A DNA stretch of 64,000 nt from Marsupella aquatica (Eukaryota > Plantae > Marchantiophyta): NCBI GenBank assembly GCA_973895155.1, contig OZ316893.1, positions 28,158,210 to 28,222,209 on the forward strand, written 5' to 3'. A program made the position numbers and the translations under genes. Under the pieces are notes generated by a model that saw only the letters and a program-made list of their open reading frames with translations, did not search any database and was not told the origin of the DNA. Below are positions 1 through 57,272 of this stretch, piece after piece; positions within the stretch are counted from its first letter, which is position 1, and each line of letters begins with the position of its first letter.

Positions 1-766
1 CCGTTTTCCGGCCTGACTGTCAGCTTAGTTAGGACCTTAGTCAGCGAATCTTCGGCGAGAGGACACCCCGTCCCTTGGCTCTTAGTATTTAGTGCACCCC
101 TCGGTAGAGGCGGGGGGGGTTTTTAGTTTCAGAGTCGGACATCCGCGGGACATGCGGGGAGTCCCGACCTCTGGGAATGACAGGGTACCAAGGGGAGGGG
201 GTAGGACTAAGCTCGTCGGGCGAGTGCGGAGCCGGGCTCCGTTGTAGTGTGCACCCTCGGCCTTGAACCTGTGCATTCCAGGGCTGTCGTGTCAACTAAG
301 TGTACGCATATGTTCCCTTTGTAGTAAAATCCTTTCCCATCATTTTTCTTCGTGTAAATCGAGATTGTATGCATGTGTGCGCATATGTGTGTGGGTTTCT
401 CGTATATGGGTGGCAGCGCCAGGCCGAACGCACTACCCGAGACGTGCACAGGTGCAGCCTGCGGGTAAGTGGTTGCGAGCACGGGTTGAGGACCTATATC
501 ATCGAATCCGGATCGAAGGCGGACAGCACGAAGGCTTAGAAGCCCTTAAGCCGGGGTCGATCCTGCTATCGACTAAGGTACGTTCCGGCGGCGGAACACA
601 AACCATACCTAGGAGGTGTCCATATTTAGCAGTATGCACACTTAGCGCTAGTTTACGAGAATAAGGTGCATTACGTGCTTCCCTTCCTGCCCGAACCCTC
701 AAATTTACGAGGGATGTGCCCGTCTAAGCTGAAGTCTAAGTTAAGGCCGAAGCCTACGACGTGACA
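1..766 (+). mobile_element. 3' end of a TG..CA LTR-like unit, same family as 31446-40183 (start lies outside the window)
   Basis: 1-766 is near-identical to 39423-40183. Both end ...GACGTGACA and the similarity stops exactly there. Confidence 0.9.
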
Positions 767-2894
767 GTTGGGTCTTGGGGTGCCATGGGTTCTCGAGGCT
801 TGCAGGTGTTAGCTCGCATGCTTGCCAAATGTCACGCGATTGACATGGGTTTTAACACCAAAAACATCACTATTGGGTGCCAAAACCATCTCCTTGTACC
901 TGAGGATCACGAAGGGATGCTGTGAAGGCTGGTAAACACCAGTTTATGCCCTTAACACTAGACTATCATAGCAAGACTCTGTCATACATCACCCAAGCTC
1001 AATCCCTAGGAACCAAGGTTGGTAATCAGATCCTTTGCTCATGATAGTTCTGGTGAGAAGGGATCTTCATATCGGGCCCGTACACATAGGGCCTAGCGCT
1101 ACGGTGCGCATATGTCTATACGTATGCTTATTGTCATAGGTATATTTCTATTCCGCCGCCGGAATGTACCCATAAACCAGTGACTCCTGACTGATTCCCG
1201 GCTTAGGGACTTCTAAGCCATTGCCCCACCACTCTGCCATTCCACTCTCAGCAATCAGAGCTATGACAACCCTCACCCAACCCACTTCAATGCACCCGGT
1301 ACACCTCTTAGTGGCGCTGCTAGTCCCATCATACACTTGGATTGCCTCACACACACACACATCCATGAGAGAAATGAGGCCTGAGAGGTAAACTCAATTA
1401 GATTCAAAGATGTGCACAATTATAGTTCACTGAGAACACTTGATCCGAACAATAGGCCCAAAGGTTGTCTACTCCAGATTTCGACATGCTTGCCTTGCAA
1501 GCCCCATGCTTGCCATGCAAGCTCAATCCTGAACCTGAGCCTGGCTCACTCCAGATTGCGACAGTAGATTAGACTCGAACCAATCCCGTACTTGCCTTGC
1601 AAACTCAACCTCCTTCACTGCACTTCATTCTTGGAGGCACATACAGATCTAAGACCTCCATTTTAGAATGGCAAGTTACGCATGCATAGTTTACTCGACT
1701 TCAAAGTTGGTACCAGGCCTAACGACAATCTACCCCAGACTACAATGAGGCTCGGCCTCACGCTTGTCCTACAAGCTCAGCTCTGGCCATAAATCCCTTA
1801 GTGCTCTCTACCAGACAAAGGCCGAGACTCCCCATGGATCACGTAGTCTTGCCAGACTAAACTGTAAATGCTCCTCCTGCTGCCCCTCAATCAGTATCTC
1901 AACCTCCCTAATGTGCTCACCGCAAATCACATTGAAATCCTCCCCACATTTTACAATCACCAACAAATCACCTATCACCAAGCCTCTGTATTGGGGGAAA
2001 AGAACCCAGTGGTGTTGCCTACTAGAAAGAGTCACAATCCAGGTTGCAAACCTGGCCAACTGTTGCTATGAAGCGTGGCTGATCACTCCCTGAGTAATAG
2101 CACAACCAAGCTCTCCCCAACACACAGCTTCCAAGCCCAGCCTCCCTTGCACAGAGCTCCTCCCTGCTGCTCAGTCTACGTGAGATCACACAACTGAAGT
2201 CCCCCCTGCCTCTACCGTAGGGCTGCTCTATATACTCTCACATTGAGCCCAAATGGGTGGATGCTATGCTGTTGGAGCCCCATCCCAGCCCTAACAGAGC
2301 CGCCACTATCTCTAATTACCAAACCCTAACTCGCAGCTTTATTTCTATCTTGAATTGGCTATGTACTTCGGATTTGGCCCTCCTCCATAGTTTTTGCAAG
2401 CTTGCGCCTCCTCTCACAATTTCTCTATTCAACCATCTGCTGCGTGGATAGCAGCGTTGGAAGCGGCTTGAGCTCCTCTTTCCAACAAGGTCAATTATAG
2501 TCAATTTGGTCAAATACACAGAGAGTTATGCCCCCGCAACCGAGAAGGGGTACTCACTGTTGCGCTAAGTACTAGTAACCCGAGTTACATTGCTAACCCA
2601 AGTTTGGCTAACCTATATAGCTATCCTATCTAACCCGAGTAGAGCTAACCCGTGGTCTCGGGTTAGGCCGCTACCCGCTATCCGCTAACCTAGGCTAACC
2701 TGAGCCCGAACCCGAGCTTACCTATGCTAACCCGAGTTCAGTCTAATCCGAACCCGAGTTAAGCCTAAACTGAAGTTGTGCTGACCTGAGCTAAGCTGAA
2801 GCCGTGCTCACAAAAGCTAAGCCGTGGCCGAGCTTAGGTTAACCCGAAACCGAAGTCGAATCCACTAATTCTGGCCACAAGTTAACCCGTCACA
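767..2894 (-). mobile_element. Diverged LTR in minus orientation, related to the 33717-38430 family, interrupted at 766/767
   Basis: Shares the block ATTCCGCCGCCGGAATG (~1150) with ~33973 and a similar ATCGGG..GGCCTA block. Ends ...CCCGTCACA at 2894 (TGTGACGGG on minus). TATA-like TATATAG on minus near 2230. Confidence 0.55.
2575..2850. repeat. Degenerate short tandem repeats (CTAACCCGAG-like) in the LTR
   Basis: Many AACCCGAG/CTAACC copies are visible. Confidence 0.75.
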
Positions 2895-23700: not shown

Positions 23701-26408
23701 CGTGGAAGCACATTGATGCCACTTGGCCAAATTTTGCCTAGGAGCCAAGAAATGTTCGTTTGGGGTTGGCAATCGATGGAGTGAACCCATATAAACAACG
23801 ACGGAAGCCTAAGTCCATCTGGCCTGTTCTTTTGATAAATCAAAACATCCCTCCATGGTTGGCAATGAAGAAGGGTCATGTGCTTCTATTAGCTATAATT
23901 CCTGGACCCAAGGCCTGTAAGAATCCTGATATCTGTTTGGCTCCAGCTTATGAAGAGCTACATAATCTATGGGAGGTTGGAGCAGTGACAACAGATGTCA
24001 CTCGTGAACCAGGCAATGGTAGGACCTTCAATATGAGGGTGATGATCACTCATTGCACCACAGATGGTCCAGGTAATTCATTGGGCAACCCAATGACTAT
24101 TGTTTGCACAATGTCATGTACAATGCAAGTGTTGGGGTTATTTGTGGTCTGAACATGGTTCAATGAAATGGCAGGTATGGGAACAATATCTGGCCTGAAG
24201 GTGGCAAGTTTTTCAGCTTGCCCTTCATGTGGCCCAGAGTTGCGTGGGAGGTACTCAAGACTACTGCACAAAACCACATATGAGGGCAGTAGGGTCCGGT
24301 TGGCAATGGATGACCACTTGCGACAAAACACAACACATTGGGCAGAGACTGAAGTGCGGCCATGTCCTAATGGCCCTTCAGCTGAAGGACAAATTCAAAT
24401 GGCAGAGAAGGTGGAAGCAAAGTTACTAAAACCCAAGGATTGTGGAGTAAACCGACGCTCAGCTATGTGGGACTTGCCTTATTGGAGGGTAAGTGATAGA
24501 AGTGCATGGTTCCTTTACAGCAAATTAGACCAATAAAATTCTTAATTTAGAGATTGCAACTGATTCAATATGTTATTTCAATTTCTAGAGACTCCAGGTT
24601 CGATGGTTGTTGGACCCCATGCACATTGAAGTGAATGTTGCTAAGAACTTGGTGAAGCACATTTATGGGACGAATGACACTCGTGGAGTCCGAGAGGATG
24701 CTGAGAGGGTTGGAGTAGTGAAGAGTTGTTGGATAACACGTACTGGGGAGAAACCTCCTGGTCCTTGGATTTTGCCAAGAGAGGTTTTGAAGGACATGAA
24801 TGGGATGATAAGCGAGATGAAGTTCCCTAGCCATTACGGAGCTGGTTTTCGTGGGTGCACTACAAGGAATGATCACATACCCCCAATAGGGTTGAAGTCT
24901 CATGATTATCACAAGTTGATACAGCATGTGCTACCAGCAGTCTTGCGTTGTTGTGATGATTCCCGGGAGCGTCGTTTACTCCGTCTGACTATATATGAGA
25001 TGTGCTCCATTTTTAGGTATGCTAACGTACCCTCTCTTCCATTGCTCTCTTGCAAGTTCTTGTTACCGCTGAAGGAGCCATGTAATTCAACAAGTATTTC
25101 AAACTCATTTTTCTATGGCCCTATGTGGATCTGATATACAAAATCTTTGATGGTTTTGAGGAGGAACATAGGTGGGTATGCGCTAAGGAGATAAAGGAGT
25201 CTGAGATTCCTTTGATGAGAGAGAGGTCAGCTCGCGTGATGTGCAATATGGAGAAGGTGTTTCCCCCATGCATATTTGACATGCAATTGCATTTACTATG
25301 TCACTTGGTGGATGAGGTCGCGATTGCTGGTCCTGTCCATGCACGTTGGATGTATTGGGTAGAGCGCTTCATGAAAGTGCTCAAGTCCATGGTGCGTCAA
25401 CCAGCTCGACCAGAGGGAAGTATGGCAACGGGGTATATCATGTCGGAGTGCCTCTTTTATTCCGGAGGGATGATAGGAAGTTTGGACACAGAAGCTCCCA
25501 CAGCTTGGGAAGAGGCACAAGATGATGACAATGGTGGGTTGCGTTTGATGGGTGCATCAAAAAAGCGTTCACTACATGACAACATACTTCGCCTACAGAT
25601 CCACAATTATGTGTTGGGAAATCGCCCAGAGATGTCTCAGTGGAGGGAGTTGCATAGGTACATATATGCAACTCTATATAACTGTTAATCTAACAGTAGA
25701 CGTTGTTCTACATTCTATGTGTGTAGAAGTTAGAGTGGGTTCAAGGAGCACTTCTTTGGATTGTGCAATATTCTCATGGATTCATACATTTTTTGCAGTG
25801 CATTCTTGGAGCAGCAACCAATAGTTGCACAACGGTATGCATTATTTCGCGTATGGGCATTGGAGCGCATGGATAGGCTCCTTGCAGAGCATGGACCCTT
25901 ATCCATTCCCATTGATGTACAGAACATCATTAGGGGACCAGGGTTGTGGGCAACGACCCATACACACATGTATGAGTCAGGGCACCACTTTCGCACTTGG
26001 AGGACAGATCACATGAAGAAGAGTACATGTAACTCAGGAGTGTTCATGTTGACAGACCCAGGTGATGTTGAGATTCCCTATTGTGGCACTATATTGGATA
26101 TTTTAGACGTTCACTTTGGGTCATTTACTACTATTGTGTTAGAGGTGCGGTGGCACAAATCCATCATGTCACCTCCACATAGAGCCACCATGGTGAAAGA
26201 TGAGTGTGGGTTCTATCGGGTAGACACGACTCGTGTAGCACCATCCGGGACTGAGGTTAGTGACACTATAGTATTTCCTAGCCAGGTGGATCAGTGTATT
26301 ATGGTTCTGATGCACACTATGAGAGGATGGTCCATCGTCATTCCCATCTTCCCACGATGGAGGAAGGGTTTGATGGCATCAGTAATTGTAGATGATATGG
26401 ATCCATGA
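20747..26408 (+). pseudogene. CACTA transposase (TnpD-like: transposase-associated Zn domain, Transposase_21, DUF4218-like regions), 8 predicted exons
   Basis: Exons ~20747-21358, 22415-22821, 22962-23268, 23568-24072, 24175-24488, 24589-25016, 25172-25657 and 25799-26408 with GT-AG junctions. Motifs CPCRRC..HL, IHMCPGGCILY, EPRNVRLGLAIDGVNP, LDPMHIEVNV, GLKSHDYH, GPVHARWMYWVER. Premature TGA at 21038 and TAG at 23739. Confidence 0.9.
21463..22281 (+). CDS. SET-domain (lysine methyltransferase-like) exon inside transposase intron 1
   Basis: GLGVFA (motif I), FYG, IDG...GNLAGYINS, PNAE, ATRTIRAGEEILVDY (motif IV). Frame is intact. Acceptor AG at 21461-21462 is phase 0. Confidence 0.8.
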   Translation: MPVVVRSSPVDRLRDIAYRALAPLVHPSDFPATLREIDRVFRRRRRVFRMHPIERGVVVTTRPRSIESRPPRIVPPRCPFLDASVSRAPRQLRGRALDILKDSFPAQFGLPMDLPLREPIIVWDRPWVILPSTLGTHVGLGVFALVDIVVPTSCAPDDLPQLFPFYGPKYSAARWRILSRQCPTFSRYGMSLKLDPRYAQIDGYPPRTGNLAGYINSTIGSRRSGFRPNAEWHEFHDQSHPRLPVACTHYILTHATRTIRAGEEILVDYDWH

Positions 26409-30400: not shown

Positions 30401-33400
30401 ACACCCTCAAGAATCAGAAGAGGGCCAAACAATACCTGTACCGTTTCTTCATGCACATGGAGATTGTGAAGCCAGATTACTTTTGGGCATACCCTGCTGC
30501 TTTCCAAAAGTGGATCGTTGTTCCTGAAGGAGACATACTGGCCAACGTGTATTCAATGTATCCCGTTGAAGGGTGTCTTCCACCAAGAAAACTGTCAGAA
30601 TGGGAGAGAATTCATTGTCCTTGGTATTTGGACACCGATAGATGGGACTCTCCATTCGGAGACACTGAGAAAGACGCATTTCATAAGCTTTCAAAGTCTC
30701 AGGTCCCTCCCAAGTTTGTGTCCGACATGAAGCAGGGAATTGAAGGTGATGTGAGCAAGTCGGCGGCAGAATTACAAACGGTGTGCGAAACTACGGTTGT
30801 TCATGTTGACCGAAGTCGCAAACCTAGAGCCAAAGCAAAAACCGAAGCTGTGGCACCGAGTACATCAATGCGGTCCGCCAAAAAACGTAAGTTGTCATTC
30901 AGCTTGTAGCTTCACATTTTGGTTAGGGCCAGGCGCTGCTATATGACTATGTCTATTGGTTTGTTTTTTCAATTGGTTTGGACAGCGCCTGGCGCTATTA
31001 TTCAGCATTGAATAAATTTTGCTCTTTTTCCTTTAGGTGGGAGAAAGTCTGACGTTGCAACCGACGAAACAAAAGTAGATGCGACTCCGGAGCCTTCTGA
31101 AGCCAATACCGGTGCCCGTCAGACCCAGTAACTCCAATTGACAAAGCGAAAGAGATTGTCCCTCTTGATGCAACCAGTACAAAGAAGAAGAAGAAAAGGG
31201 CAATTCAAGCTAGAGAATCTTCCCGAGATGATGCCACTGGAACTGGTGTTCAGAGAGATGTGGGAACCTTCAAGAGCAAATCTTCTAGGCATTGCATGGT
31301 GGAAACAAGTATCCAAGAATTTATTGATACTGCTTTCAACAAAGCAGCGAAACCAGATTGGGTGACTGATGCAGAGAAATGGGGAAAGGACTTAATCAAG
31401 TCGGGTTCCCGAGAAAGGGAGTAATCAAAGGAGGAAAAGAAAGATTGTGACGCCACCGGTACGGCGGTTAATGAGTGATTCGGTCTAACTGTGCTTAGCA
31501 CACGCGTTAGGAGTGTCTTAGGCCGCTATTATTAGCATAACGATAGTATTTAGGTAATCATTATGGGTAGGACATCATTAGGCAATAAGGGGGAATTCAG
31601 GTTCGGATTGGCGGCGGGTCGCTATTCGCACACCCAGGTTACGAGCGTGGAGGGGCCCCTCCCTCAGGTCCGTATAACAAACTTAAGGAAGCGGCCACTG
31701 ACACGTGCTGACTCAGACCGGCGAAGTGGCCGGTACACCACAAGCGTGAGCGGTTCAGCCTATGGGCGTCGAGAAGACGTCGGGGGATCGACAAGCCCTC
31801 AAGGTATAAAAGGGCAGCCAACCCTTTGTAGTGCACCAGTCCATCAGTCCACGCGCCAACCCCAGCTCTCTCGTTTGCTCTAAGTTGCCACTACTATCTC
31901 CTCTGAATGTCGCACACGATCCTCTCCAGCTCGGCCATTCGATTCTGGACGCAATTCCTATCTACCGGAAGGCACTTGGCCGACTCATTGAAACACGCCA
32001 ACCCGCGCCGATACAAAATCGAACGCAAGTACGAGAGAGCCATCCGCCTAGCAGGACGACACCACTACATCCTTAACTTTGACTACCCGTCTCAGAGCGA
32101 GCTTTACCGACCAGCAGAGGTATCTGGGTACTTCTTCAACGCAGACAAATATATCGGTTTGTGGGAAGCATTGCTTCGGTTTCCGGACGAGGTCTTCAAT
32201 ATCCCGGGTACGATTGACTTGCAACGACATCACTTTGACCACATCCCTGCTCAGGTTCGGGCTATCATCAACAGCAAGTCTAGCACTACCCGTTCGACAA
32301 GGTCGTCTGCACTTGCTTTGGAGAACTTCTACCAGCATCTACAGAGCTTCATGGGAACTCGGCCATCAACCAACATGACCAACTCAGTCGAACCCGTACC
32401 TGTACCCATACCCGTACCCATACCCATGCAACCTCAGGCTCAACCTCAGGCTCAGCTTCAGCTTCAGCCTCAGCCGCAGCCTAGCCAAACCCCACCACCG
32501 ATCGCCCAGCCAGCACAAGTACACTCCGTCATCAACGCTGTGGATCTTAGCGATGACGACGAGGCTACCCCACCCTTGACCAGGCGGCCCAGAGGAACAA
32601 GCGCTTAGGGGGCCGACACTATATCGTCCCCACCCCCTGCTCTGACCCCAGGAGCGGCCCCGACAGACAACATGGTGACCGTGGCCGACCCGGGCCCGTT
32701 ACTAACGGCAGTGGCATTACCCAGGCCCGATCGGGAGGATGGGGAGGTGTCACCTTCCCCGAGCCAGTCACGGGGAAAGAAGAGGAAGGAATCCACCACT
32801 GCATCCGGGTTACCTTTGGTCATGGTAGCCGTAGCCAAGGTGACGATGCACCACATGGGGGAAAACGTTCACAAAAACATCCTCCATCCCAAGCATGTGG
32901 TGTACCTGAAGACTCAGGGATTCAAGCACCTCGCCTCCCTCCCCTGGAACACTTGCAGGTACTATGGGGAGGACATGACGGAGTTCATCAGGAATTATGA
33001 CGACGCGCGTCAACATACTCGGTTGCGGGGAAGGAGTATGTCCCTCATGGAAGAACGGCTCAGGATGATCTTTGGGTTACCCAAAGGTGACCATCGAGTC
33101 GAATCACGGGCTCCCGGGGGCAAGGGAGCCAAGTACCAATCTTCAAGTTTTCCCTCAGAGGGAGCAGTGGACAACGGGTTCGTGATGAGGACCTGTCTCA
33201 TCCCCGAGATAGCTGAGCGACTGGAGTTCCAGAGGTACGCCCTCCACATGATGGAACCCCGGGGAGAGATCTCCGCCGCCCAGGTTATCCAGGTCGAGAA
33301 CTATCGACCTAGGAGGTGGGCGTCGTACTTCGCTAAGAAATTCCATGAAGAGATGGAGCGGCGAAGGAAGACGCTGTACATTGGCGGGAAGGCGTATTTC

Positions 33401-33716
33401 GCTAGCCACATCGAGATCATTCTTGAGTGGTACGCTCTTTTTGATCAATGAACCCTTCCCCGTGTCAACGTTACAAAGCTGGTCCCAGCTAGGTGGGTTT
33501 TCCCAGCCTTGGAGAGACGGCCCCAACCCGAGGCCCGAAGTCCAGCAGACACGCCAGCTTCACCCACCCCACCTCCACAAGTAGCTGTAGTCGTAACCGA
33601 GGAGGTACCGGATGGGTCGGTTGTCGCAACCGTTGATGCGACCCAACAAGCTGGGCTAAATACAGAAGTCGGTACGGCGGAGGTCTTACCCGAGCCCGGT
33701 TCTCCCAAAGACCCAC

Positions 33717-36700
33717 TGTGGTGCGTCCCATGGCTCCCTAAATCCAAGAAACCCCCCAGCTCAAGCCGATTCCTGCAGGTTTCGTGCTTGGCGAGGCCGT
33801 TTCCGCGGCTTAGCGGCATGGGACGCTGCTAACTTTCTACTACTACTATTAACATTTTACACACATATACTGGACAGATCCTTCATCGGGTCATGAGATA
33901 CGTAGCCGGCCTAATATAGGCCTTCCCCTGTCTTCCCCTGTCTTCCCCTCCGTCTTGTTAGGTATGTTTGGATTCCGCCGCCGGAATGATCCCCAATAGG
34001 CTTGGTTAAGCCGCTAAGACCTCTCTCAGCTCGACACATCCAACTCTCACTCCCCTGCTTACTTTCCTTCCTTCTGTTGATGTGGGCACTCTTCACACAA
34101 GTTAATGCGACACACAAATAGCAAAATGACTCATTCTGACTGAGTCATACCATGCACTTGCCATACAAACAGTACATCTCATACACAAGTTCTGCGAACT
34201 AAGCCGTGAGGCCAACTCTATTCAGCTCTTAGGCATGAGGAAACATGAATATACACAAGGGTCACTGTATGACTAACCGAGAGCTTCTCGTACTACTTGA
34301 TCCCAGCCCGGCTGGTGCAAACTAAAAACTTGCTAAAGAAGAGGCCCTGAGCTCCCCGCTGCCCAGGTACTTATCCTGGTAGTGGATCCGCCATTCTTTG
34401 CATCGTAAGCCTAATCTACTTAACAGTAATCTACTTGCCCGAATCTACCTATGTACAGCAAGGCAGGAGCACAAGTGTTGCTCCTACCAGTGGGACCGCA
34501 ATCCCACTAAGCTAAGTGTCAGGGCCGCTCCTGGTTCTGATCCTAATCCTAAACGTGGAGATCCGCGCCCGCCCTGCCCACTCACGCCTCCTCCCTCCAC
34601 GTCCGCCCTCCCTAAAAGGAACGGCGCCCTTGCACCGTCACGACACCGGTGGTGGATCCTCAATGGACGCCCCCAACACTTCCTCCTCAGCCACTGCCGT
34701 TGGCCCGCCTACTGACAGATTACCTGCCCTTGACCGAGTCAACTCTCCATCGGCCTGACTGGGTCCACCTTCGGCTTCAGCCTCGACACCGGCCTCGGCA
34801 ATACCCACGGCTTCGGCCTCAGCCACTCCCACGGCTTCGGCTTCAGCCACTCCCACGGCTTCGGCTTCAGCCACTCCCACGGCTTCGGCTTCAGCCACCC
34901 CCACGGCTTCGGCCTCCCCTTCCCCTAGGGTAGTTGGATCCTTAGCCGTGACCCTGTCTGGGGTCGGTGCTGGGTCTACCTCCTTGATCACCACGGCCTG
35001 TGAAGTCGTATTACTCCTTGACCCTGGAGGTTTCCGCTTCTTCTTCGTTGGTGGCTCGGCAGCTGGTCCCTTCCCCTTCCCACTTACTTCCGGCACTGGT
35101 GCAGTTGACGCGGCTTGTCCTTCGGCAATTACCACCCCTGGTAACTGGTTTGTCCCAACGGGAGATGGACCTGCTACAGCTAAGCATTTAAATACTGCGG
35201 CTTGTTTCTTCAGCCGCTCTGTTTGGTTGTCGGCCCGCCGCTGTAGGTTCTCCATCTTCCTCGTGATTTCCTCCAACTCCTCTTGGGTTTCATCCAGGTC
35301 CTTACGTGCCCCCTCCAGCTCGTTTTTGGCCTCCTCCTGCTCCCTGTGGGCTTCCTCCAATTCCTTCTTCAAGGTAGCCCTCTCCTCCTGGGTTGCTCTT
35401 AGCTCCTTGTCGAGCTCTGCAATGATGACAGACTCCATCTGGTTCATCTTGGCGTAAGTCTGTTCGAGCATTTCGTCCTTCTCCCTTAGGTCGGCCTTGA
35501 AGCTGGCCGTCAGGGACGCAAGCTCCTGCTGCAGCGCCATAATCCCTTGATAGGATTTCCCTAACTCGACCTCCTTCTGCTCAAGGGCTCCGCGGATTTT
35601 CTCGAGCTCCCCTTTCAACGCCCATTCCTTTCTTTGGGTCTCCGCCATGGCCCGGCTGTTGGCTGTTATGTGGGCCTCCTTTGTATTCTTCAGCTCTTGC
35701 TTCCACTTCTCCCTCTCTTTGATCGTGTCGGCCAACTCTTCCTGCGTCTGAGTCAGTTTATCCTTGATATTCTGATTATCAGCCTGCGCGGCGTCCAACT
35801 GCCCCTGCATGATGTTCAGCTCATGTCGTTTAATCCGCAGTTCATCTTGGGCTTTCTTGGCCGCCCTTAGATCTTCAATCTCGGCTCCCATCCTCCTAAG
35901 CCATCGAATGACCTCGTCCTTCTTGCTTCTCTCTAAAGCCACCGCTTCTTCTAATTGGTGCTTCTCCAACTGCTCCCTATGGAAAAAGGGTCCTACCTCC
36001 AACTCCTCTCCAAAGATGCCGAGCGCAAGTTCCCCACACATCTCACCATACTCCATGGCTCTATTCTTAGCGTAGGTGGAGTAAGTAGAAGTGATCGGCA
36101 TCGCCCATCGTGGCCTCTGCTCCCAAGCCGTCCTGCGGATCTCTTCAATCGTGGCTAGAGGTTTGCTTCCTTTTTCGGCTAGCCGCCTGATGTCCTCCGG
36201 CCAATCTCCTCCTGGTAAATCCTTTTCCTTAGCCAGGGCGGCCTCTTCCTCCTGCTTGATTCGCTCCTGAAATTCCTGCACCGTCTGTTTTATGCCGTCG
36301 AAGCTCGGGGGAGCAACATCTGGTGGGGGAGACTCAGGGCTACTCTGCTGGTTGGGGTCCCCTCGCACTACCCTTGGAAGTGTGGGGACAAACCGGCCAC
36401 AGGTCCTTACTCCTGGAACGTGATGGTCCGACCCATAGCCGGAATTATCATGGCTGCAGTCCTCCACTGCCTCCTCTACCTCTTGGATGTCCGGCTTCTC
36501 CCTCTCCTCTTCATCGGTAGGAGCTTCAGGCAATTCTGCCTCAGATTCGGAGCTTGAGGTTCCCACGTACATTCGAACACCTGGCTTGGATTCCGGCCTG
36601 ATTCTCTCCTTGTCTCCAGCAAAGGGGTTTTCTCTTGTGAGCCGGTGTAGGCCTACTTCTGTAGTAGTGTCCTGCATTGTTGCCGTTGCCGTTGTTGTTG

Positions 36701-38430
36701 TTGTTGCCGATGCCGATTTCTTTTCTTTCTCCAGTAGTTTCAGCAGACTCTGCATGCCTGGTTGCTGCATCGGCAAGTCTTCCTTCTTGGGCCTAAACAC
36801 CTGCTCGATCGTAGGACTAACAGGTGGTGGAGGCTTCTCAGCCAACGGCCTCGGTGTTGGAGCTTCCTCGGGTGCCCTTACCTGCAGGGGAAGTACCGGG
36901 GCAAAAGTCTGACCTCTGGCATACCGGCACAACAGCGGCATGTGATAGCCAAGCCGCGACATGCTCCCCATGCCGATTACCTGCTGCTCCTCCTTTAAGA
37001 TCTTCTTCAATTGGTTGAGGAGGTACCCGTTGTAGTCCCGGCTTGGGTCTGGCCTTTCTGCCAGATAGACATGTGCCTTGCCGATCTCTGCCCTCGGCAA
37101 GTTACAATGCATGGTCACCCGCAAGAAGTCGATCATCTCTCCTATGTGCGGGTTGGTGCAGGTGTTCCGGAAGAAGCCATTCTTCGTTGATGGCCCGGGG
37201 AACGACCGGAACTCCTTGTCAGGCAAGGTCTTCCTGGTATCAACTTTGGTCTTATTGCCCATCAGCAAGCCAAACACTTCGGCAATTACCTTGGGAGTAA
37301 GATAGAAATCCTTCCCATATATCCTCGTGCAATTGGTCTCGGGTTCCCATGACCCCACGAATTCTAATAGGTCTGACTCCGGTACCTCCGGCTTCAGCCA
37401 TGGTAATCTTACAAAGGCCTCCAAGCCGGATCCGGCCATGAAGCCTTGGTACTTCTTGGTCTGCATGGCCGTAAAGCATGCATCCTCCTCCCGTGCAAAA
37501 TGTAGTTGCACCTCCACCGGTAGGGTTGCCGCCCAGCCCTTCCAGGTGTCATCCCTGGTTGGAATGGCCTTGATGGGATCGACCTCCTCCTCTTCGGCTT
37601 CTCCCTGCCTCCTGCTCTGCTGCTCGGCTGGCTTCTTTGGTGCCGCCGACCTCGTTCTTTTTGCCGGGGTGGCTTCATCGTTGACGGCTCCCTTCCTCTT
37701 CATCTCTGCTGTCGTGGAGGTTTCTCCTAGCACCGTTGCCTGGGTCCACCTTTCCGTGCTACCCTTTAATTCCCAGTGTATGTCGTTGCAGTTCTTGATG
37801 GCCTCTCGGATGCCGACGACGCTGTCTTTGCAAAACAGAAGATCGTCGAGTTGATTGGAAGTAGGCGTCCACAGGAACTCGTCCTTGATGAGTTCGCCTC
37901 CTAAGAAAGCCGTCTTGTGCAGCTCCCACAATCGAGCGAGCTCCTGCCGTTCTCGAGCTGCCCTTTCTGACTCCTCGTCCTCGTAAGTCTTGATGTACTC
38001 AGTTGCCCGTTCGAACAGGCATCCCCAGAAATGTGCCGCTTGATTGACGTTGCTCATACCCTCCTTAGGTCGATCGTCGGTATCTACTCTCTCCCCGAGT
38101 GCTTGCCTAAGCAGCTGACAGTAGTTGGCCTCCCGTAGTCGTCTGCCTAGTTCGTGCTTGCAAATGAGCCACCATCTCCTGCAAGCGCTCCTTACCCCTC
38201 TCCTCTGTCGGTCCTTCTTCCCGTTGATCCTTCCTAGCCGCCGACGCTTAACGCGCCCTAACCCTAATCGGGTTTTCACCCTTAGCCTTACCTCCGGCCT
38301 CTGCCCGGGTTCCATGGTTGCCCCTAATTGTTTATATTTTCCTTGTTTTGTCACTATACTAAGGTGTTCCTAGGGTGCCTTCCTGCTTTACCCACTTAAC
38401 CGGCCGAGTGATTCCTGTCTAGGCATCACA
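33717..38430 (-). mobile_element. TG..CA solo-LTR-like unit, 4,714 bp, carrying an intact 1238-aa ORF
   Basis: Termini TGTGGTG..CATCACA. TSD CCCAC at 33712-33716 and 38431-38435. A second partial copy starts at 43755. Confidence 0.92.
34638..38354 (-). CDS. 1238-aa protein: plant-mobile-domain-like region, long coiled coil, AEAVGVAE repeats
   Basis: Uninterrupted ORF. LEFVGSWEPETNCTRIYGKDFYLTPKVIAEVFGL resembles the PMD core. E/K/Q heptad region. 24-bp tandem repeat at ~34790-34915. First ATG probably ~38315. Confidence 0.8.
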   Translation of the reverse strand: MTKQGKYKQLGATMEPGQRPEVRLRVKTRLGLGRVKRRRLGRINGKKDRQRRGVRSACRRWWLICKHELGRRLREANYCQLLRQALGERVDTDDRPKEGMSNVNQAAHFWGCLFERATEYIKTYEDEESERAARERQELARLWELHKTAFLGGELIKDEFLWTPTSNQLDDLLFCKDSVVGIREAIKNCNDIHWELKGSTERWTQATVLGETSTTAEMKRKGAVNDEATPAKRTRSAAPKKPAEQQSRRQGEAEEEEVDPIKAIPTRDDTWKGWAATLPVEVQLHFAREEDACFTAMQTKKYQGFMAGSGLEAFVRLPWLKPEVPESDLLEFVGSWEPETNCTRIYGKDFYLTPKVIAEVFGLLMGNKTKVDTRKTLPDKEFRSFPGPSTKNGFFRNTCTNPHIGEMIDFLRVTMHCNLPRAEIGKAHVYLAERPDPSRDYNGYLLNQLKKILKEEQQVIGMGSMSRLGYHMPLLCRYARGQTFAPVLPLQVRAPEEAPTPRPLAEKPPPPVSPTIEQVFRPKKEDLPMQQPGMQSLLKLLEKEKKSASATTTTTATATMQDTTTEVGLHRLTRENPFAGDKERIRPESKPGVRMYVGTSSSESEAELPEAPTDEEEREKPDIQEVEEAVEDCSHDNSGYGSDHHVPGVRTCGRFVPTLPRVVRGDPNQQSSPESPPPDVAPPSFDGIKQTVQEFQERIKQEEEAALAKEKDLPGGDWPEDIRRLAEKGSKPLATIEEIRRTAWEQRPRWAMPITSTYSTYAKNRAMEYGEMCGELALGIFGEELEVGPFFHREQLEKHQLEEAVALERSKKDEVIRWLRRMGAEIEDLRAAKKAQDELRIKRHELNIMQGQLDAAQADNQNIKDKLTQTQEELADTIKEREKWKQELKNTKEAHITANSRAMAETQRKEWALKGELEKIRGALEQKEVELGKSYQGIMALQQELASLTASFKADLREKDEMLEQTYAKMNQMESVIIAELDKELRATQEERATLKKELEEAHREQEEAKNELEGARKDLDETQEELEEITRKMENLQRRADNQTERLKKQAAVFKCLAVAGPSPVGTNQLPGVVIAEGQAASTAPVPEVSGKGKGPAAEPPTKKKRKPPGSRSNTTSQAVVIKEVDPAPTPDRVTAKDPTTLGEGEAEAVGVAEAEAVGVAEAEAVGVAEAEAVGVAEAEAVGIAEAGVEAEAEGGPSQADGELTRSRAGNLSVGGPTAVAEEEVLGASIEDPPPVS

Positions 38431-41400
38431 CCCACCGGTGGCTATCCCGGAGAACCGGACATTGCTGCAGGAGGACACTCCAGCCCCTTCCAACGTTACG
38501 TCCCCAGGGCTGGATGTCACTGCCCCGGCCCCCGCGCGTGTTGACGTCTGCCCGTGCCGAACTCCGGACAGGCACAACCTGGACCACCCGGAACTCTTCG
38601 TACCGGGTACATTTCTGAACGGGCTTCTGGGAGATTTCTCTCATCAAATTTCCCGGGATACCGGGGAGTTCATGGCCCGGAAGGTAGCCTGTTTCTTCAA
38701 TCAGGAGTTGGTTGCTGTAGTAAAGGCAGGTCGGGCCCAGTCAGAGGCCCTTTAGAGGATAGAGCGGTACCGGGTGGAGTCCGTGTACCTAAAGAACGAA
38801 GTTGCGGCTCAAGAGGCTGAGCTTCGGCAACTACGACCCAAGGTTGCAGCCGCCGATGAGTTGTTAGCAAAGGCGCACGCTCTTACCGCCCTAGCCGAAC
38901 AGGCCAAAGCTGGGAACGAGGCTGAGATTACACGACTCCGGAACCAGATTGACAGTTTGAAGAATCAAACTGTCACCTAGCAGAAAGACCTGGAGGAGGC
39001 CGAGGAACGGGCCCAGCGGGACACGACGGAGATAGCCACGCTGCAGGCCGAGGTGGCGCGGCTCCAAACCGAGGCCGAGAAGCAGGACCAGCTGGCGGGT
39101 AAACTGACGAGCGATGCCCAGCAGCTGGAGGAGGCATGTCAGGAGGCAGCCGAGGAGACGGACGCGGCGAGGCGAGAGAACAAATCTCTGCTGGACCAGG
39201 TCCAGCTCCTCAAGGCGGACAATGACAGGCTTCGAAGGCAGCGGGATGGCCGCTCCCATTCAGGCGGCTCTGGCAAGCGTACCAGGCATTAGCAGCGGAG
39301 TAGGAATAGATTAGGATTAGGACTAGCTTAGTCAGGCTCTTGGGACAGGCACCTGCCTTAGGTACAGCAGCGCTGCCATGCTGTCCAGCCTGCGTAGATT
39401 AGGATCTTCTAATAAGACACAACCGTTTCCGGCCTGACTGTCAGCTCAGTTAGGACCTTAGTCAACGAATCTTCAGCGAGAGGACACCCCGTCCCTTGGC
39501 CCTTAGTATTTAGTGCACCCCTCGGTAGAGGCAGGGGGTTTTAGTTTCAGAGTTGGACGTCCGCGGTATGTGCGGGGAGTCCCGACCTCTGGGAATGAAA
39601 GAGTACCAAGGGGGGGGTAGGACTAAGCTCGTCGGGCGAGTGCGGAGCCGGGCTCCATTGTAGTGTGCACCCTCGGCCTTGAACCTGTTCATTCCGGGGC
39701 TGTCGGGTCAACTAAGTGTACGCATATGTTCCCTTTGTAGTAAAATCCTTTCCCATCATTTTCCTTCGTGTAAATCGAGATTGTATGCATGTGCACGTGT
39801 ATGTGTGTGGGTTTCTCGTATATGGGTGGCAGCGCCAGGCCGAACGCACTACCCGAGACGTGCACAGGGTGCAGCTTGTGGGTAAGTGGTTGCAAGCACG
39901 GGTTGAGGACCTGTATCATCGAATCCGGATCGAAGGCGGACAGCATGAAGGCTCAGAAGCCCTTAAGCCGGGGTCGATCCTGCTATCGACTAAGGTACGT
40001 TCCGGCGGCGGAACACAAACCATACCTAGGAGGTGTTCGTATTTAGCAGTATGCGCACTTAGCGCTAGTTTACGAGAATAAGGTGCATTACGTGCTTCCC
40101 TTCCTACCCGAACCCTCAGATTTACGATGGATGTGCCCGTCTAAGCTGAAGTCTGAGTTAAGGCCGAAGCTGACGACGTGACAAAGATCATTTGGTGTCA
40201 ATGCAGGATTCATCTATCTTCCTACTGGACTTAAACCTATGCTCATGGACCGTCGGGTTCCAAAGTGGAATGTACCAGACCACACAGTTCCCAATTCTTT
40301 CTTCAAAGTGATGGACCCTTTCCTTTCTGATGATGGCATGCTTGCGATCTTGTATTCAGATGACCATGACCAGGTCTTGCAGGTCATTTCAGCATGCCAG
40401 CAGTCAAAAAAGTTCCATTGTGTCAATTCTCACAATGTCGTCATGTCTATGCCCATGTACAGAGCAAAGACCGATATTCAGGTACAGATCATTGCATCTC
40501 TTGTTTATTGTTAGCGCCCGACACTAATTTAGTCTTTGCTGTAGTTCTCGAAACATTACCCGTCGGTTGATAATTTGAGCCAAACGTGTGCGATGCGTGT
40601 AGGTATTTACCCTTAGGCTAGACATATTTTGTCGGACTTCTTCAAAAGGAAGGTACCAAAGGATCCAAGGTTTAAGCCTCTATCAATAAGTGAAGATCCT
40701 TCAATCTCTAACTTGATTGGGCTCCCAACCTTGAAGACAGATCATTGCCTGGAGTTGGATTTTGCAAGGAACGCCTGTCTTTTGGTTGGTTTTATGGGGG
40801 TATTTACAAAAGACAGGAACCAAGAAACAATAACAAGAAACGGTTACTGTTACCAGGAGAATTGGAGGTAAAAACCAAAAACATTGGACCAAAAAAAGGA
40901 TTCCAAACAATCAAAACTAAAGCCCATTTGAGTCATTTTCATTAAAACCATCTAATTTCGAAGGAAATATCCCGTCGGGTAGTCCGACCCAAATTTGCGA
41001 TGATTACCAGCGCCCAGCGCTGGTATCAATGAAGCGAATAGAAAGCTGGTAGGGTTTCATAGAAGAAGGAAAAATCAAACAAAAATCTACGTAACCTCAA
41101 TCGAGAAGACAATGAGCGGCTGAAAATGAGGCAATTCAAATCAACAGAGGTAGGGTCATACAACAACAAAATCCGGATCTCATTGCTAGTTTAAACCTCA
41201 AAATCCCAAAATCCATGTTTAACGCCATCGAGAGGAAAACTAGACATTGGAGATTGAGCCGATCACAAATTCATTTACTTCAAAAATGGGCAAAAACATA
41301 TCACCGAGATTACATGGGCGACGGAAAGCAATGAGTATAAGTAGCGCCCGACGCTAGCTTAAAACTACAAATCCCGCCCTTCCATGTGTAACGCCATGGA

Positions 41401-43754: not shown

Positions 43755-44691
43755 TGTGGTGCGTCCCATGGCTCCCTAAACCCCAGAAACCCCCCTTCAC
43801 AAGCCGATTCCCGCAGGTTTTGCGCTTGGCGAGGCCGTTTTTGCGGCTTAGTGGCATGGGACGCTGCTAACCTCCTTCTACTACTACTATTAACATTTTA
43901 CACACATATACTGGACAGATCCTTCATCGGGTCATGAGATACGTAGCCGGCCTAATCTAGGCCTTCCCTTGTCTTCCCCTCCTTCTTGTTAGGTATATTT
44001 GGATTCCGCTGCCGGAATGATCCCCAATAGGCTTGGTTAAGCCGCTAAGACCTCTCTCAGCTCGACACATCCAACTCTCACTCCCTTGCTTACTTTCCTT
44101 CATCTATTAGTTGATGTGGGCACTCTTCACACAAGTTAATGCGACACACAAATAGCAAAATGACTCCTTCTGACTGAGTCATACCATGAACTTGCCATAC
44201 AAATAGTACATCTCATACACAAGCTCTGCGAACTAAGCCGTGAGGCCAACTCTATTCAGCTCTTAGGCATGAGGAAACATGAATATACACAAGGATCACT
44301 GTATGACTAGCCGAGAGCTTCTCTTACTACTTGATCCCAGCCCGGCTGGTGCAACTAAAAACTTGCTAAAGAAGAGGCCCTGAGCTCCCCGCTGCCCAGG
44401 TACTTATCCTGGTAGTGGATCCGCCTAATTCTTTGCAGCGTAAGCCTAATCTACCTAACTGAATCTACCTATGTACAGCGAGGCAGGAGTACAAGTGTTG
44501 CTCTTACCAGTGGAACCGCAATCCCACTAAGCTAAGTGTCAGGGCCGCCTCCTGGTCCTGATCCTAATCCTAAACTTAGAGATCTGAGCCCGCCCTGCCC
44601 ACTCACGCCTCCTCCCTCCACGTCCGCCCTCCTTGAAAGGAGCGGCCCTCCACCACCATCATGGCAGCGGTGTCTGTTCCTCAGTGGACGC
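43755..44691 (-). mobile_element. Terminal ~0.94 kb of a second copy of the 33717-38430 family, cut by the Gypsy insertion at 44692
   Basis: Near-identical to 33717-34670, starting at the same TGTGGTGCGTCCC terminus. Confidence 0.92.
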
Positions 44692-45240
44692 TGTCGTGAT
44701 TTTCTCTTAAGTTATAAAAAATTATTTGTTTTAATATGCTATAGGTTATATAAGTAATTTAGTAGTTAGATTATTAAATTTAAACTTTATTAAACTTCTT
44801 TAGCTATATTAACGGACTATAGTAGTTCCACCAATGCATATGAGTAGTTCCACCAACTACAATAATATTCACCAACGCATAGTAGTTCTACCAACGCACA
44901 GTAGGTCCACCAGCGCATAGTAGTTCTACCAACGCACAGTAGGTCCATCAACGCATAGTAGTTCCACCAACGCATGGTAGTTCCACCTACTAAAAGTAGT
45001 TTCACCAACTATGAACAGTACTAGCACACTCTTAGGTATTAGATGTTTGACACTTGGCCTTCATCCAAGTGCTTGGGCTTGATCCATGCCCTCTTGGTGT
45101 GCACTATAAATAAAGTGGTGAGGGGCACTCTCCCCTCATTCCGCAGTGTTTATCATTCAAGGTTGTGAAGCTCTTTTGTGCCTTGAACATAGTAGTGGGG
45201 CGTCCTTTGGCCCGGATAGCAAAGGAATAGGAGAGCCATC

Positions 45241-45456
45241 ATGAATCCAGGAGAGACAGTTATCCCTGATCTTCCCCTTCGTAATCCGTTTTTGATTAGA
45301 GTCCATCTTTTAGACAAACCATCTATGAGGCAACATCTAACCTATCATTTTGGAGCTCAGTTTGCAACTGCTGTTATGGTTTCTAACGAGCCAATAATGT
45401 ACCCAGTGGTGTCATACCGAGAGGAGTGGGAGTGCATCATCTTTGTCCTTTATTGA
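45241..45456 (+). CDS. 71-aa ORF inside the LTR (paralog 1)
   Basis: ATG-initiated and downstream of the LTR TATA. Similar in protein sequence to the next ORF. Confidence 0.45.
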   Translation: MNPGETVIPDLPLRNPFLIRVHLLDKPSMRQHLTYHFGAQFATAVMVSNEPIMYPVVSYREEWECIIFVLY

Positions 45457-45460
45457 AGTC

Positions 45461-45667
45461 ATGGATCTGAATATGAGTCCGGATGATATTCCTGTTTCAT
45501 TTTCTCTTGGAGATATTAGGATCATATGTCATAAGAAAACTAATTTTCATGATGTGTTGGTCCGCAAGTATGGTGAAGTAGGGTTTAACAGTATTTTAGT
45601 TTCACCTGAACCTTTCTTAATACCCACTACCCTTGTTACTAGAATTATCATTTTGATTTTAGTGTAG
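45461..45667 (+). CDS. 68-aa ORF inside the LTR (paralog 2)
   Basis: ATG at 45461, 4 nt after the previous stop. IRIICHKK..YG..ILVSPEPFLIP..IIILILV aligns with IRVHLLDK..FG..VMVSNEPIMYP..IIFVLY. Confidence 0.45.
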   Translation: MDLNMSPDDIPVSFSLGDIRIICHKKTNFHDVLVRKYGEVGFNSILVSPEPFLIPTTLVTRIIILILV

Positions 45668-45743
45668 AACTTATGAGCATGCAAGGTTAACTTCAAAAGA
45701 GCCAACATGCTCTTGCCAGAAAATACGGTCACCCGGACATAAG

Positions 45744-45761
45744 TGGCGACCATACTGGGGA
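45744..45761 (+). promoter_or_regulatory. Primer-binding site, tRNA-Arg-like
   Basis: TGGCGACCATACTGGGGA a few nt after the LTR end, resembling the TGGCGACTCTGCTGGGGA type of PBS. Confidence 0.7.
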
Positions 45762-45885
45762 ACCACTGGATTTGGAAGTTAGCTTGTGCATGTTTGAGTT
45801 CTAATGGATGAAGAGAGATATGGTTTTGGAACTTTGAGTTCTTAACTTGTTTATATTATTAAGTCAAGAGGGAAGAATTGCAATC

Positions 45886-53822: not shown

Positions 53823-53844
53823 AATTCCACTTGGGACAGGTTGC

Positions 53845-53860
53845 AATTTAAGTGGAGGGC
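53845..53860 (+). promoter_or_regulatory. Internal polypurine-tract-like motif, duplicated at 57332-57347
   Basis: AATTTAAGTGGAGGGC occurs after the integrase stop and again just before the LTR. Dual PPTs flanking the env-position ORF are known for Athila elements. Confidence 0.75.
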
Positions 53861-54209: not shown

Positions 54210-57200
54210 ATGGCGGAGACTGAGCTGACGACGCGACCAATACTCGCAGACATTCCATCGAATGCAGTGCATAGGCGGCAGTTGAAGACGGCTCTGGCAA
54301 AAATGGGCTTGAAGAAGCTGCTTCAACTTCCTTGGAAGATTTGCGAATTCAGCCTTATCGATCAAGGTGTCTGGGACGCTGAAGAAAGGATTGGTGTGCG
54401 CTCGCGTCCCAGTGTTTGGACTGAAGCGCTCATAGCGAAGGTCTATTCGACGCCGATGGAGGGCGAGGATTTACAGAGGGTTGATTGTGAGCCTCGGGTT
54501 TATGTAGAATCCTTCTTCGCTCCAGGATCTTTCAAGAGGCGGAATGGATGGCTAGCGGCGGACTGCTTAGATAATTCTCTGCAGCGTCTATTTTGATTTC
54601 TGGCACCAATTTTCTACCCAGAAAGCCAGACGCGCATCACTCTTTCGTTCGCTGCAACGGTGATCTGTTCATTAGAACAGACGCAGTCTATCAATTGGAC
54701 GAAGGTTTTGCACCGAGTAATTCATACTCAGGTCAAAAATTTTCGTAGCAGGCTGAAAACGGGGAAAATAAGGTGTACCTACTTGGCCCCTTATTTAGCT
54801 CACATTTACCATAAGTATGACTGTCTGCTTGTCTTGGAAAAAGATTTTTATCGCAACAATCAGAGAGCATCTACCGGTGAAGCAAATTATATGCCTGAAG
54901 TACGAGAAGTCCGAGCCAATTCCACAGTGGTAGAGCTATGTGCAATACTCGACTGTGAGGAACCTGAACTGGTGGGTGAAGTTTGGAAATTGAAAGAGAC
55001 AAGAGCATCAGCTGAAGGGAGTGACGATCCGATTCTTCACCAACCAAGAGAGGCTCAAGTTGCCGAAGATGTTCCTTCAGCAATGCCAACAGGGTTGGAG
55101 CATTCTATGTCACCTCGACTCTCGTGTTCACCTTGTGCTGCCGAGCCTATTTATGATGTTGATCAGGATAATTCTGCTTCTCGGATGAATGTTGAAGATG
55201 AGGTGAGGGTGGATGAAGAAGGTTTTTCAGGGGAACCTCTTCAACATTCTACTGCTGAGGACGAGTATGATGGATTTACTTCTACCCCTGTTTTGGTTCC
55301 CATAGAGGCAAATAGTGATGCTTTGCAGGCTTTACAGGAGTATGATTCGTCCGACTCTCTTAGTTCTAGCCCAAATATAGGTGAAATCCCTCTGGTCCAG
55401 GAGTCAGAAATATTAAGCTCAGAAATTGTGAAGCTGGTTAAAGTTGATTCGGAGGATGCAATTGTGGATATAGACGAAGTAGGTGAACCAGTGACTTCTC
55501 CCCAATCTGTCGCAAGATACCCTGCCTGGTCTACACCTGGTTCACTCATATCGATTCCTTTGGATATAACTAAGGAATTAGATGAGGCAATAGCCGCGAT
55601 AGGAGCTCCTTCATTTCCGCCTGTAAAATGGGTTTCTCCTGAAGATGAGTTGATTGAAGGAGGCTCTGCTGGTTTTCCGAGTCGCAATCAGGTATCTGGT
55701 AATATGGGTATATCTGTACCCATATTGGTACCCGAGACACCCGCTTCGACAACCAGCTCAGCACCAGTTTCATTGGCTACAAACGAGGATAAAAACATTC
55801 GGGAGGAGTTTTCAGTGACGTATACTCGAAAATCTTGGAAACGGTTGCGCCATGCTATCAGTCGACAGATCTTTCCTGAAGCATCTTCCCAGGATTTTGA
55901 ACAGGGAGAAGCACCTATCGGAACAGACGAGCTACCCCTTCCTGTACTTTTGGCAGATCGAACTAACCAGGAAGTCTCTTTACCTAGCGATAATTTTAAA
56001 GAAGAACTTCCTGTTTTAGTACCAATGCATCCCACTGCAGATCAACCAGCTACTGTTGCAAGAGAAGAATTTGAACCACTGGAGCCCGAACCTTCTGCTC
56101 CTTCGTCTCCTGTTACATTGCCAATTCGACCAGTTAAGGAGTCAGTGATTCCTTCCGCTATGCCAGATGTAATTTTCCGTTGGATAGGAGCACCAAGTGA
56201 TGGAGAAGAAGACGAAGACCCTCGCATTATCAGAGTACCTCCTCGACTTCGGCATACAGTGGATTTGCCACCCCGAAATCCTATCCCTAATTTGGCTTCA
56301 ATTCACAGGTGGGAGAAGAAACATTTTCGAGTAGCTTTTCGACATCTGGAGATGGAGAGCATTTTGCAGCAGCAGCAGATTTTGCCAATGACATCCCATC
56401 CGAGGATTCGTAGTTTGATTCGCACATATGAACCTGGGAAGGCGGTTCCTCCCATTGATAAGGACAGACGACATAAGTTTTCGGAGTTCGAAATTTGGTG
56501 TTGGGTGTATATGCTTCGACGAGCTCAAGCTCCATTTCCGCCCCTTGTGCCGGAAATTCCATGGCCCTATCCATACTATGTTTGGGTTTGTCCTGGTGGG
56601 TTTGCTATTCCAATTAAATATGAGAAGAAGCTTGTTAAGCTAAGGGAGCAGTTGATTACAAAACAATGTATGCTACCGGCTTCCCAAGGGTTCAAGTCGC
56701 TTAGGTGTTTAGCGTTCCTACCTATTATTCCTTCTTATCCGGATGTGATTATTCAAGGTGTTTTATCTAGGACACAGATTTGAAGGACACCATTTATGAG
56801 AGATATCAAACGGTGTTGTCATTTATATGTATATAAGCCGTTACTTTTGCAGCATCCTGCAATTGTTTCCTTCTTTCTCCTTCGAATTGATATTTATCTG
56901 CTCATGTGGGACATCAAAGCTACTATGGATTGTTGGAATTCTTTACCCCGTGCTTTCCAACATTCCTTTGAAGGCAAGATCAAACTGGGAGGACATGCTA
57001 TTCAACACTTTGTTATTGATCCAGGCTCTCGAATTAATTTCCTCTCCCACAGACTGTGCCAGCAATTTGTTCATCAAGAAGTACAACCGATATCTGCTCA
57101 GATATCAATCGATGGACGAATCATTAATCTTTGGGGAAGAGTTAAAGGAGTCCCAATACAGATCGGAGAAGAATTCCATGACCTCGATTTTTATATTCTG

Positions 57201-57272
57201 GATTCGGATATCTCCCAACTCCCGTCAATGATTTTGAGCACTACTTGGATTATTAAGCCAGAATATTATTAA
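54210..57272 (+). pseudogene. Env-position accessory ORF (~1020 codons): PMD-like N-terminus, acidic/Pro-rich linker, C-terminal retropepsin-like domain
   Basis: ORFs starting 54210, 54660 and 56796 share one frame, split only by TGA at 54594 and 56781. GLKKLLQLPW...NGW..C and FVIDPGSRINFLS...MILSTTWI. Confidence 0.7.

Follow-up and report, generated by a model that had tools for sequence, protein, structure and literature searches.

The DNA analysed here, a stretch of 64,000 nucleotides from the liverwort Marsupella aquatica (contig OZ316893.1 of assembly GCA_973895155.1, forward strand, positions 28,158,210 to 28,222,209; "the window" is this whole stretch), raises the question of what kind of element harbors a single long gene inside a unit with the ends of a long terminal repeat (LTR), and what the product of such a gene might do. 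The unit in question, here called the outer unit, spans 31446..40183 and is interrupted by a second, nested unit, here called the inner unit. Our analysis points to the outer unit being a solo LTR from a Ty3/Gypsy-type element of liverworts, the unique 3′ region (U3) of which would carry a gene for a nuclear DNA-binding protein with a VANC21/DUF1985/PMD fold that helps the family to escape silencing; we regard this reading as a whole as reasonably probable. An earlier note on this DNA had proposed that the outer unit, without its nested insert, is a TG..CA unit of 4,019 bp flanked by the target-site duplication (TSD) AAGAT, and this was borne out to the base (Table 1). The TG..CA termini, the 5-bp TSD (4–6 bp are expected), and the existence of a dispersed multi-copy family agree with a solo LTR, and neither self-BLAST nor Pfam found gag, pol, or a terminal direct repeat inside the unit. 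Judged by its termini, its TSD, and the homology of its tail to that of another unit, the designation as an LTR appears well supported.

The earlier note's account of the interior, comprising a TATA box, one frame of ~888 codons with four point stops, and a tail of ~0.9 kb, was likewise confirmed. A TATAAAA at 31805 lies in a leader of 461 bp, a single plus-strand frame runs from an ATG at 31907 to a stop at 39290–39292 (888 codons), and a tail of 891 bp follows. The frame contains four internal stops (32606, 33449, 38753, and 38978); the base composition predicts ~31, and 48–64 occur in the five remaining frames of the unit. P0073, a stop-free protein of 906 amino acids (aa), is collinear with the outer frame over aa 13–887 (28%, E 7e-95), and basic motifs resembling nuclear localization signals (NLS) occur at matching positions in the two proteins. 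The outer protein has no transmembrane segment (top hydropathy over 19 residues, 1.26), and Pfam detected no transposase, reverse transcriptase (RT), or integrase domain in its gene; the two LTR-borne proteins of the window gave coiled-coil noise alone. A conserved helical domain at the N-terminus was delimited with a hidden Markov model (HMM) built from four hand-picked database relatives, which scored the corresponding domain of the inner protein at 12.7 bits, and at 15.9 bits once the outer protein had been added (best of 300 shuffles, 7.8). No fold clearly matches this domain (best Z 5.4 among ties; none in a second fold search), Atlas gave no match at 0.9, and the domain belongs to no known family. 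An env-like accessory open reading frame (ORF) was considered as an identity for the gene and rejected, there being no transmembrane segment and the gene lying inside the TG..CA unit, not between pol and the polypurine tract (PPT).

The outer unit is no accident: it belongs to a family of many copies that carries a real gene, and the copy in the window has been inactivated by point stops and by the nested insertion. A second copy of its 3′ end is cut by the edge of the window; 30 of the 36 substitutions between the copies are transitions, as expected of methylated repeats. The sequence is contained in six public sequencing runs, none of those listed being an RNA run, and four runs from three studies were mapped onto a 9.2-kb stretch. 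The numbers of contigs on this stretch were 24,069, 39,546, 13,762, and 1,023, with 30 of 30 bins covered in each run, and the insert-free joint (33710 to 38430) was present in all four. At the first base of the first stop, essentially all depth in the four runs carried another letter and, therefore, this stop is private to the copy in the window. Among the 12 indel rows listed of 26, none fell in the outer ORF and four fell in the non-coding third (p ~0.013, for the listed rows only). A terminus of the outer unit was absent among the 24 loose-end rows listed of 3,161 for the run contigs. The flanks of the outer unit (31200–31445 and 40184–40400) are themselves repeated, being covered in all four runs, and can be read through the insertion site as a single, uninterrupted coding-like frame; thus, the outer unit landed in another multi-copy element.

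The tail of the outer unit can be compared with that of a gene-less relative in the window, which has the same termini. The two have three matching motifs in a common order (39505–39538, 39950–39972, and 39994–40031), the first of which includes a TATA-like box and the last of which is a hairpin motif with the core TTCCGGCGGCGGAA. This core has five matches in the window, all near the 3′ ends of units and in three families, and none in 100 shuffles. Because the outer tail is collinear with the gene-less unit, we place the gene in U3; from the order of these motifs it seems quite likely that the tail is the ordinary promoter, repeated region (R), and unique 5′ region (U5) of an LTR, and that U3, upstream of this, holds the gene and the gene's own TATA box at 31805. 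The 5′ part of the gene-less unit (2237–2894) has seven copies of degenerate AACCCGA repeats, a count that 0 of 200 shuffles reached. A TGG two bases past the ends at 766 and 830 might mark the start of a primer-binding site, but its occurrence there is expected by chance.

The inner unit follows the same plan, with a leader of 115 bp, an ORF of 1225 aa without a stop, and a tail of 921 bp. The layout and domain order that the earlier note had described as common to both units held up in the unit and domain comparisons, and the second partial copies that it had listed for both families are real (5–766 at 94.5% and 43755–44691 at 90.4%); a recurring, multi-copy design, as it had inferred, is also borne out by the run coverage and by the relatives of the core domain. 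Its view that the two families are independent and without evident DNA similarity did not survive. The outer and inner proteins are homologous over ~180 residues of the core domain (24% identity, E 3e-15) and have both domains and the place of the coiled coil in common, and their tails share a hairpin and a 29-bp DNA motif (E 4e-4 in the comparison of the units; 1.6e-5 tail against tail). Because the N-terminal domain, the core, the position of the coiled coil, and the hairpin motif of the tail are shared, common descent is likelier than convergence; more likely, the two families are distinct and old, and the layout arose once rather than twice. In a tree for which 46 rows with a domain of at least 150 aa were used, from 59 database domains and three rows from the window, the outer and inner proteins fell into different supported subclades on an unresolved backbone. 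The second copy of the inner family breaks off at 44691, where other sequence that starts with TG begins; this sequence (44692–48000) is AT-rich, with a 19-bp tandem array at 44819–45009 and gag-like frames at 45838 and 48345, and no second LTR for it was found within the window. In the run mapping, joints lead from the ends of the inner unit into its own interior (34571 to 33717, 36361 to 33716, and 38430 to 34988), which suggests that the inner family inserted into itself in other copies.

A homologue of the gene was found in a more conventional setting. A profile built from 59 database domains, with the window sequences left out, detected a distant copy of the core domain at 54261–54797 (30.5 bits, independent E-value 6e-11; next match −3.5 bits) in an extra ORF that follows pol and precedes the 3′ LTR in an ordinary Gypsy element. 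Upstream of this ORF, Pfam identified RT, RNaseH, and integrase in Gypsy order; downstream are a PPT-like motif (57334), an LTR (57350–58740), and a site resembling a primer-binding site (PBS; 58747). A 13-base PPT-like motif occurs twice, directly after the integrase stop (53847) and at 57334, and flanks the extra ORF. For Athila elements, the literature searched did not confirm a second PPT after pol. Such a position after pol is standard for plant extra ORFs (PMC7264820; likewise the available part of PMC6317226). Because the homologue of the gene lies in an element with Gypsy order, the assignment of the outer unit to Ty3/Gypsy is likely on this sequence evidence. The N-terminal domain is carried by both LTR-borne proteins and is missing from the post-pol ORF, to which the tree gave no firm placement (long branch). 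The region 53822–60000 is a tandem Gypsy arrangement with one LTR (57350–58740) in common; to its left lie the integrase, the extra ORF, and the PPT, and to its right the PBS-like site and a new gag (59956). Of 47 copies of GACGCT in the window, 6, 14, and 7 are clustered at 53958–54123, 57519–57779, and 59553–59812, and these clusters in non-coding parts of the Gypsy element with the extra ORF are candidate family-specific binding sites. A second frame after the extra ORF (56784–57272) has a weak match to an aspartyl protease (PF13650, E 0.024), which would be an odd place for it.

Evidence on the possible function of the gene comes from its core domain. A profile of the two core domains, run against 1.84 billion proteins, gave 67 relatives, and the 20 that were looked up included five clusters from Calypogeia fissa, one from Riccia sorocarpa, and one, a weak match, from Orobanche minor; by identity, the nearest named relatives of one of the window's reverse transcriptases are liverwort proteins too (Riccia, 59–73%; Calypogeia, 55–62%). 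When the inner core domain was used in a word-based protein search, proteins of 673–2144 aa yielded no match, and a sequence search of the core domain against the PDB gave weak coiled-coil hits alone. The core domain was modeled with a predicted local distance difference test score (pLDDT) of 94.8, and the only solved structure that matched the model is that of VANC21 bound to DNA, which was the top match in Foldseek (prob 0.93, TMq 0.57, E 0.084; next prob ≤0.02) and in VIA (Z 8.1, root-mean-square deviation (rmsd) 4.1, 198 of 213 residues aligned; next Z 2.3, among 48,161 chains). Atlas neighbours among plant clusters were PMD (20% of members) and DUF1985 (89% of members), each at 0.91. The PMD and the DUF1985 domain of VANC are reported to be structurally similar (available part of 10.1101/2024.09.27.615353), and a common fold is described in the accessible text of PMC13547354 as well. 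Within the sections at hand, PMC5735166 states that VANC binds family-specific motifs and removes DNA methylation sequence-specifically, and PMC5418596 that Gypsy-encoded PMDs are known from angiosperms and that their ancestry is fully open. The sole Pfam match in the aligned members of the domain family was Transposase_32 (2 of 48, best E 0.006). Membership in PMD, DUF1985, or VANC was ruled out as a class label by the Pfam and target-repeat tests described below.

Together with the NLS-like motifs, the coiled coil, and the missing transmembrane segment, the match to VANC21 leads us to propose a nuclear, dimeric DNA-binding factor. The LTR would, with good probability, be laid out as U3 containing the gene with its own TATA box, an LTR promoter at ~39505, and then R and U5. 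We think it somewhat probable that the gene moved once, in an ancestor of both families, from an internal post-pol position into U3; there it would be copied twice per element and survive recombination between LTRs. Priming at an upstream copy of the PPT, carrying the ORF into U3, would be a conceivable but doubtful route. The protein would, on balance, enter the nucleus, dimerise via its coiled coil, and bind DNA, and it may, with rather less assurance, counter methylation or Polycomb silencing in trans. If the predicted structure is a guide, it is likely that each such LTR carries its own defence against silencing. The widest form of the idea, that liverwort elements moved a VANC-like sequence-specific anti-silencing gene into the LTR, that solo LTRs unsilence the family in trans, that recombination to solo LTRs cannot remove the gene, and that the VANC/PMD fold has been an ancient accessory domain of retrotransposons since early land plants, is offered as speculation.

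Several observations weigh against this account. Structurally, the match is moderate (Foldseek E 0.084, 10–11% identity, rmsd 4–5 Å), and the VIA Z of 8.1 is near the level that the tool calls common. Pfam found PMD (PF10536) and DUF1985 (PF09331) in none of the window proteins and none of the 48 aligned members, and over-represented 7-mers are absent from the outer head, the outer tail, and the inner tail; they are present in the U3 of the gene-less unit and in the ordinary Gypsy element. Nor is function given by a fold: the host PMD proteins MAIN and MAIL1 are described as acting in silencing (PMC5418596, available part). As for the LTR itself, no TATA box like that at 39505 was found in the tail of the inner family, the gene-less comparator lacks a TSD and is itself a putative LTR only, and within the window there is neither a parent with two such LTRs around gag-pol nor a PBS or PPT tied to either family; metagenome scans for loci were empty (0 of 60 and 0 of 74 candidates). 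Three further stops were absent among the 40 rows listed of 864 in the run mapping, contig depth is no measure of copy number, and the richest run may be the source sample. Finally, the unresolved backbone of the tree leaves one capture or several captures of the gene undecided.

These points give room to other explanations, which differ in what they take the TG..CA unit to be. It could be a whole element, non-autonomous and with one gene, that never had a two-LTR parent and uses an integrase or transposase in trans. Every such unit in the window is single and none lies beside gag-pol, gene and tail are covered roughly evenly in the four runs, and the ends of the unit are imperfect inverted, all of which would suit such an element. 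However, reverse transcription requires a repeated R region, and a single unit has none; Pfam found none of the transposase, RT, and integrase domains in the outer gene, whose homologue resides in a Gypsy element, and a gene-less LTR-like unit has a tail that matches the outer one. TG..CA ends with a 5-bp TSD are also the signature of an LTR integrase, and the available text of PMC6317226 gives TSDs of 4–5 bp and LTRs of up to ~5 kb for LTR elements. We consider a whole element improbable. Even less probable in our view is a solo LTR in which the TATA box at 31805 is the LTR promoter, so that the genomic RNA would begin with a giant R containing the gene. The sole canonical TATAAAA is indeed at 31805, the box at 39507 being a TATTTA variant that has no counterpart in the inner tail, but 39505–39538 aligns with a canonical TATATA of the gene-less unit and is followed by the same motifs, and if a 3-kb R placed a gene before the PBS, translation of gag would be expected to suffer.

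Two further explanations concern the gene rather than the unit. With the same architecture, its product could have another nuclear or RNA role, such as integration targeting, RNA export, or chaperoning in the particle, or no role might be left. The remote fold similarity, the missing repeated target motif in the outer unit, the unexplained N-terminal domain and coiled coil, and the fact that plant extra ORFs in general have no known function (PMC7264820) all speak for this, yet the one solved structure with a match shows an anti-silencing factor bound to DNA and stop-free members persist across diverged families; we see another role as a possibility, though not the expected outcome. In a window full of nested and broken elements, a one-off rearrangement, either the deletion of gag-pol from an ordinary element or the arrival of a host gene in an LTR, would come readily to mind, but the 5′ end is not repeated inside the unit, many haplotypes cover the gene region in the four runs, and a second family is laid out in the same way. 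This explanation is largely refuted and we give it hardly any weight. We therefore retain as our preferred reading a solo LTR with a U3 gene for a predicted DNA-binding product.

Among known systems, the plant Ty3/Gypsy extra ORFs (the PMD in Ogre, the Athila ORF, TRP28 in Retand, and Grande gene 23) are likewise accessory genes of LTR retrotransposons. Grande gene 23 has its own promoter, as the putative TATA box would provide for the outer gene, and for plant extra ORFs a nuclear or DNA-binding role has been proposed and a PMD-related fold noted, as predicted here. They are described as internal, between the LTRs, in the available parts of PMC7264820, PMC6317226, PMC11963269, and PMC5418596, whereas the genes considered here lie wholly within the TG..CA unit, in sense orientation, encode 888–1225 aa, come from a liverwort, and add an N-terminal domain and a coiled coil. 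The VANC proteins of VANDAL (Mutator-like) transposons, including VANC21, are also transposon-encoded and, by the model, alike in the core fold (198 residues aligned); VANC21 is predicted to dimerise via a coiled coil (PMC13547354, accessible part), and the coiled coil of the outer protein is a candidate dimerisation part. Unlike VANC, the outer protein shows 10–11% identity and no Pfam match, is encoded in a retrotransposon LTR, and has no target repeat in its unit. VANCs are described as dicot-specific and PMDs, including the PMD-C of MAIN/MAIL, as angiosperm proteins, whereas the outer gene is from a liverwort. Genes located in LTRs occur in animal retroviruses: lentiviral nef is one, and sag of mouse mammary tumour virus (MMTV) encodes ~320 aa. 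As in the units described here, sag is a protein gene within a retroviral LTR and present in every LTR copy (available parts of PMC2191060 and PMC2191119), but it specifies an unrelated membrane protein of a mammalian retrovirus, and the outer gene is far longer, with a soluble product. By analogy, the outer gene may be likened to a plant extra ORF that has a VANC-like core and occupies the same place as sag in MMTV. Long plant LTRs, of up to ~5 kb in non-chromovirus Gypsy elements (PMC6317226, available part), fall in the same length class as the 4.0 and 4.7 kb found here; they are described as non-coding expansions, whereas here one gene fills two thirds or more.

In the literature searched, which comprised papers without their supplements and without subscription papers, a gene inside a plant LTR was not found described (Additional files 4–5 of PMC6317226 could list such ORFs), and the single phrase match was to a host gene inside a maize element. 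A gene of 2.7–3.7 kb in the LTR would turn a solo LTR into a potential gene that each element holds in two copies and that recombination leaves in place. The link to VANC21 supplies a testable function for plant accessory proteins, for which function is an open question, and bears on whether the PMD originated in a retrotransposon or a host gene; a member in a liverwort retrotransposon would be older than the examples from angiosperms. In practice, annotation would label such units as host genes, and unnamed Calypogeia proteins may be examples.

Table 1 Positions of the outer unit, the inner unit, and related features in the window
Feature	Position	Strand	Remarks
Outer TG..CA unit, likely solo LTR	31446..40183	+	4,019 bp without nested insert; no internal direct repeat by self-BLAST
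Left TSD AAGAT	31441..31445	.	directly flanks outer unit
Right TSD AAGAT	40184..40188	.	directly flanks outer unit
TATA box (TATAAAA), putative gene promoter	31805..31811	+	102 bp 5′ of ATG; function inferred
5′ part of 888-codon gene	31907..33716	+	stops at 32606 and 33449
N-terminal helical domain, conserved	31928..32236	+	aa 8–110; 37.0 bits with HMM of four database relatives; model pLDDT 72
Core domain, predicted VANC21/DUF1985/PMD-like fold	32837..33448	+	profile, Atlas, structure model
3′ part of 888-codon gene	38436..39292	+	long coiled coil (~38790–39240), basic C-terminus; stops at 38753 and 38978
TATA-like box and downstream motif, putative LTR promoter (U3/R border)	39505..39538	+	31 of 35 columns equal to 2236–2202, E 2.4e-7; 0 of 200 shuffles
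Hairpin motif near 3′ end, putative U5	39994..40031	+	folds as hairpin
Second copy of outer family, 3′ end only	1..766	+	cut by window edge; 5–766 against 39426–40183, 94.5%; ends on identical CA
Gene-less relative	830..2894	-	2,065 bp; termini TGTGACG..CGTGACA as outer unit; longest stop-free frame 114 codons; no TSD
Inner (nested) TG..CA unit, sister family	33717..38430	-	4,714 bp; own TSD CCCAC at 33712–33716 and 38431–38435
Stop-free homologous gene of inner unit	34638..38315	-	1225 aa; N-terminal domain aa 91–192, core aa 288–465, coiled coil
Second copy of inner family, 3′ end	43755..44691	-	against 33717–34670, 90.4%; sits in CACTA-like transposase frame (weak Transpos_assoc match)
Extra ORF between pol and 3′ LTR of ordinary Gypsy element	54210..56783	+	core domain at 54261–54797

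Elsewhere, an Rfam search of the window gave no matches, and AT-rich tandem arrays occupy 6886–7879 (units of 295 bp in 2.5 copies and 56 bp in 3.1 copies). An ORF at 21436–22281 encodes a SET domain (PF00856, above cut-off) and immediately precedes a CACTA-like transposase region (DUF4218 at 25086–25688); judging from its domain and its place, it is possibly a transposon-borne gene similar to those for histone methyltransferases.

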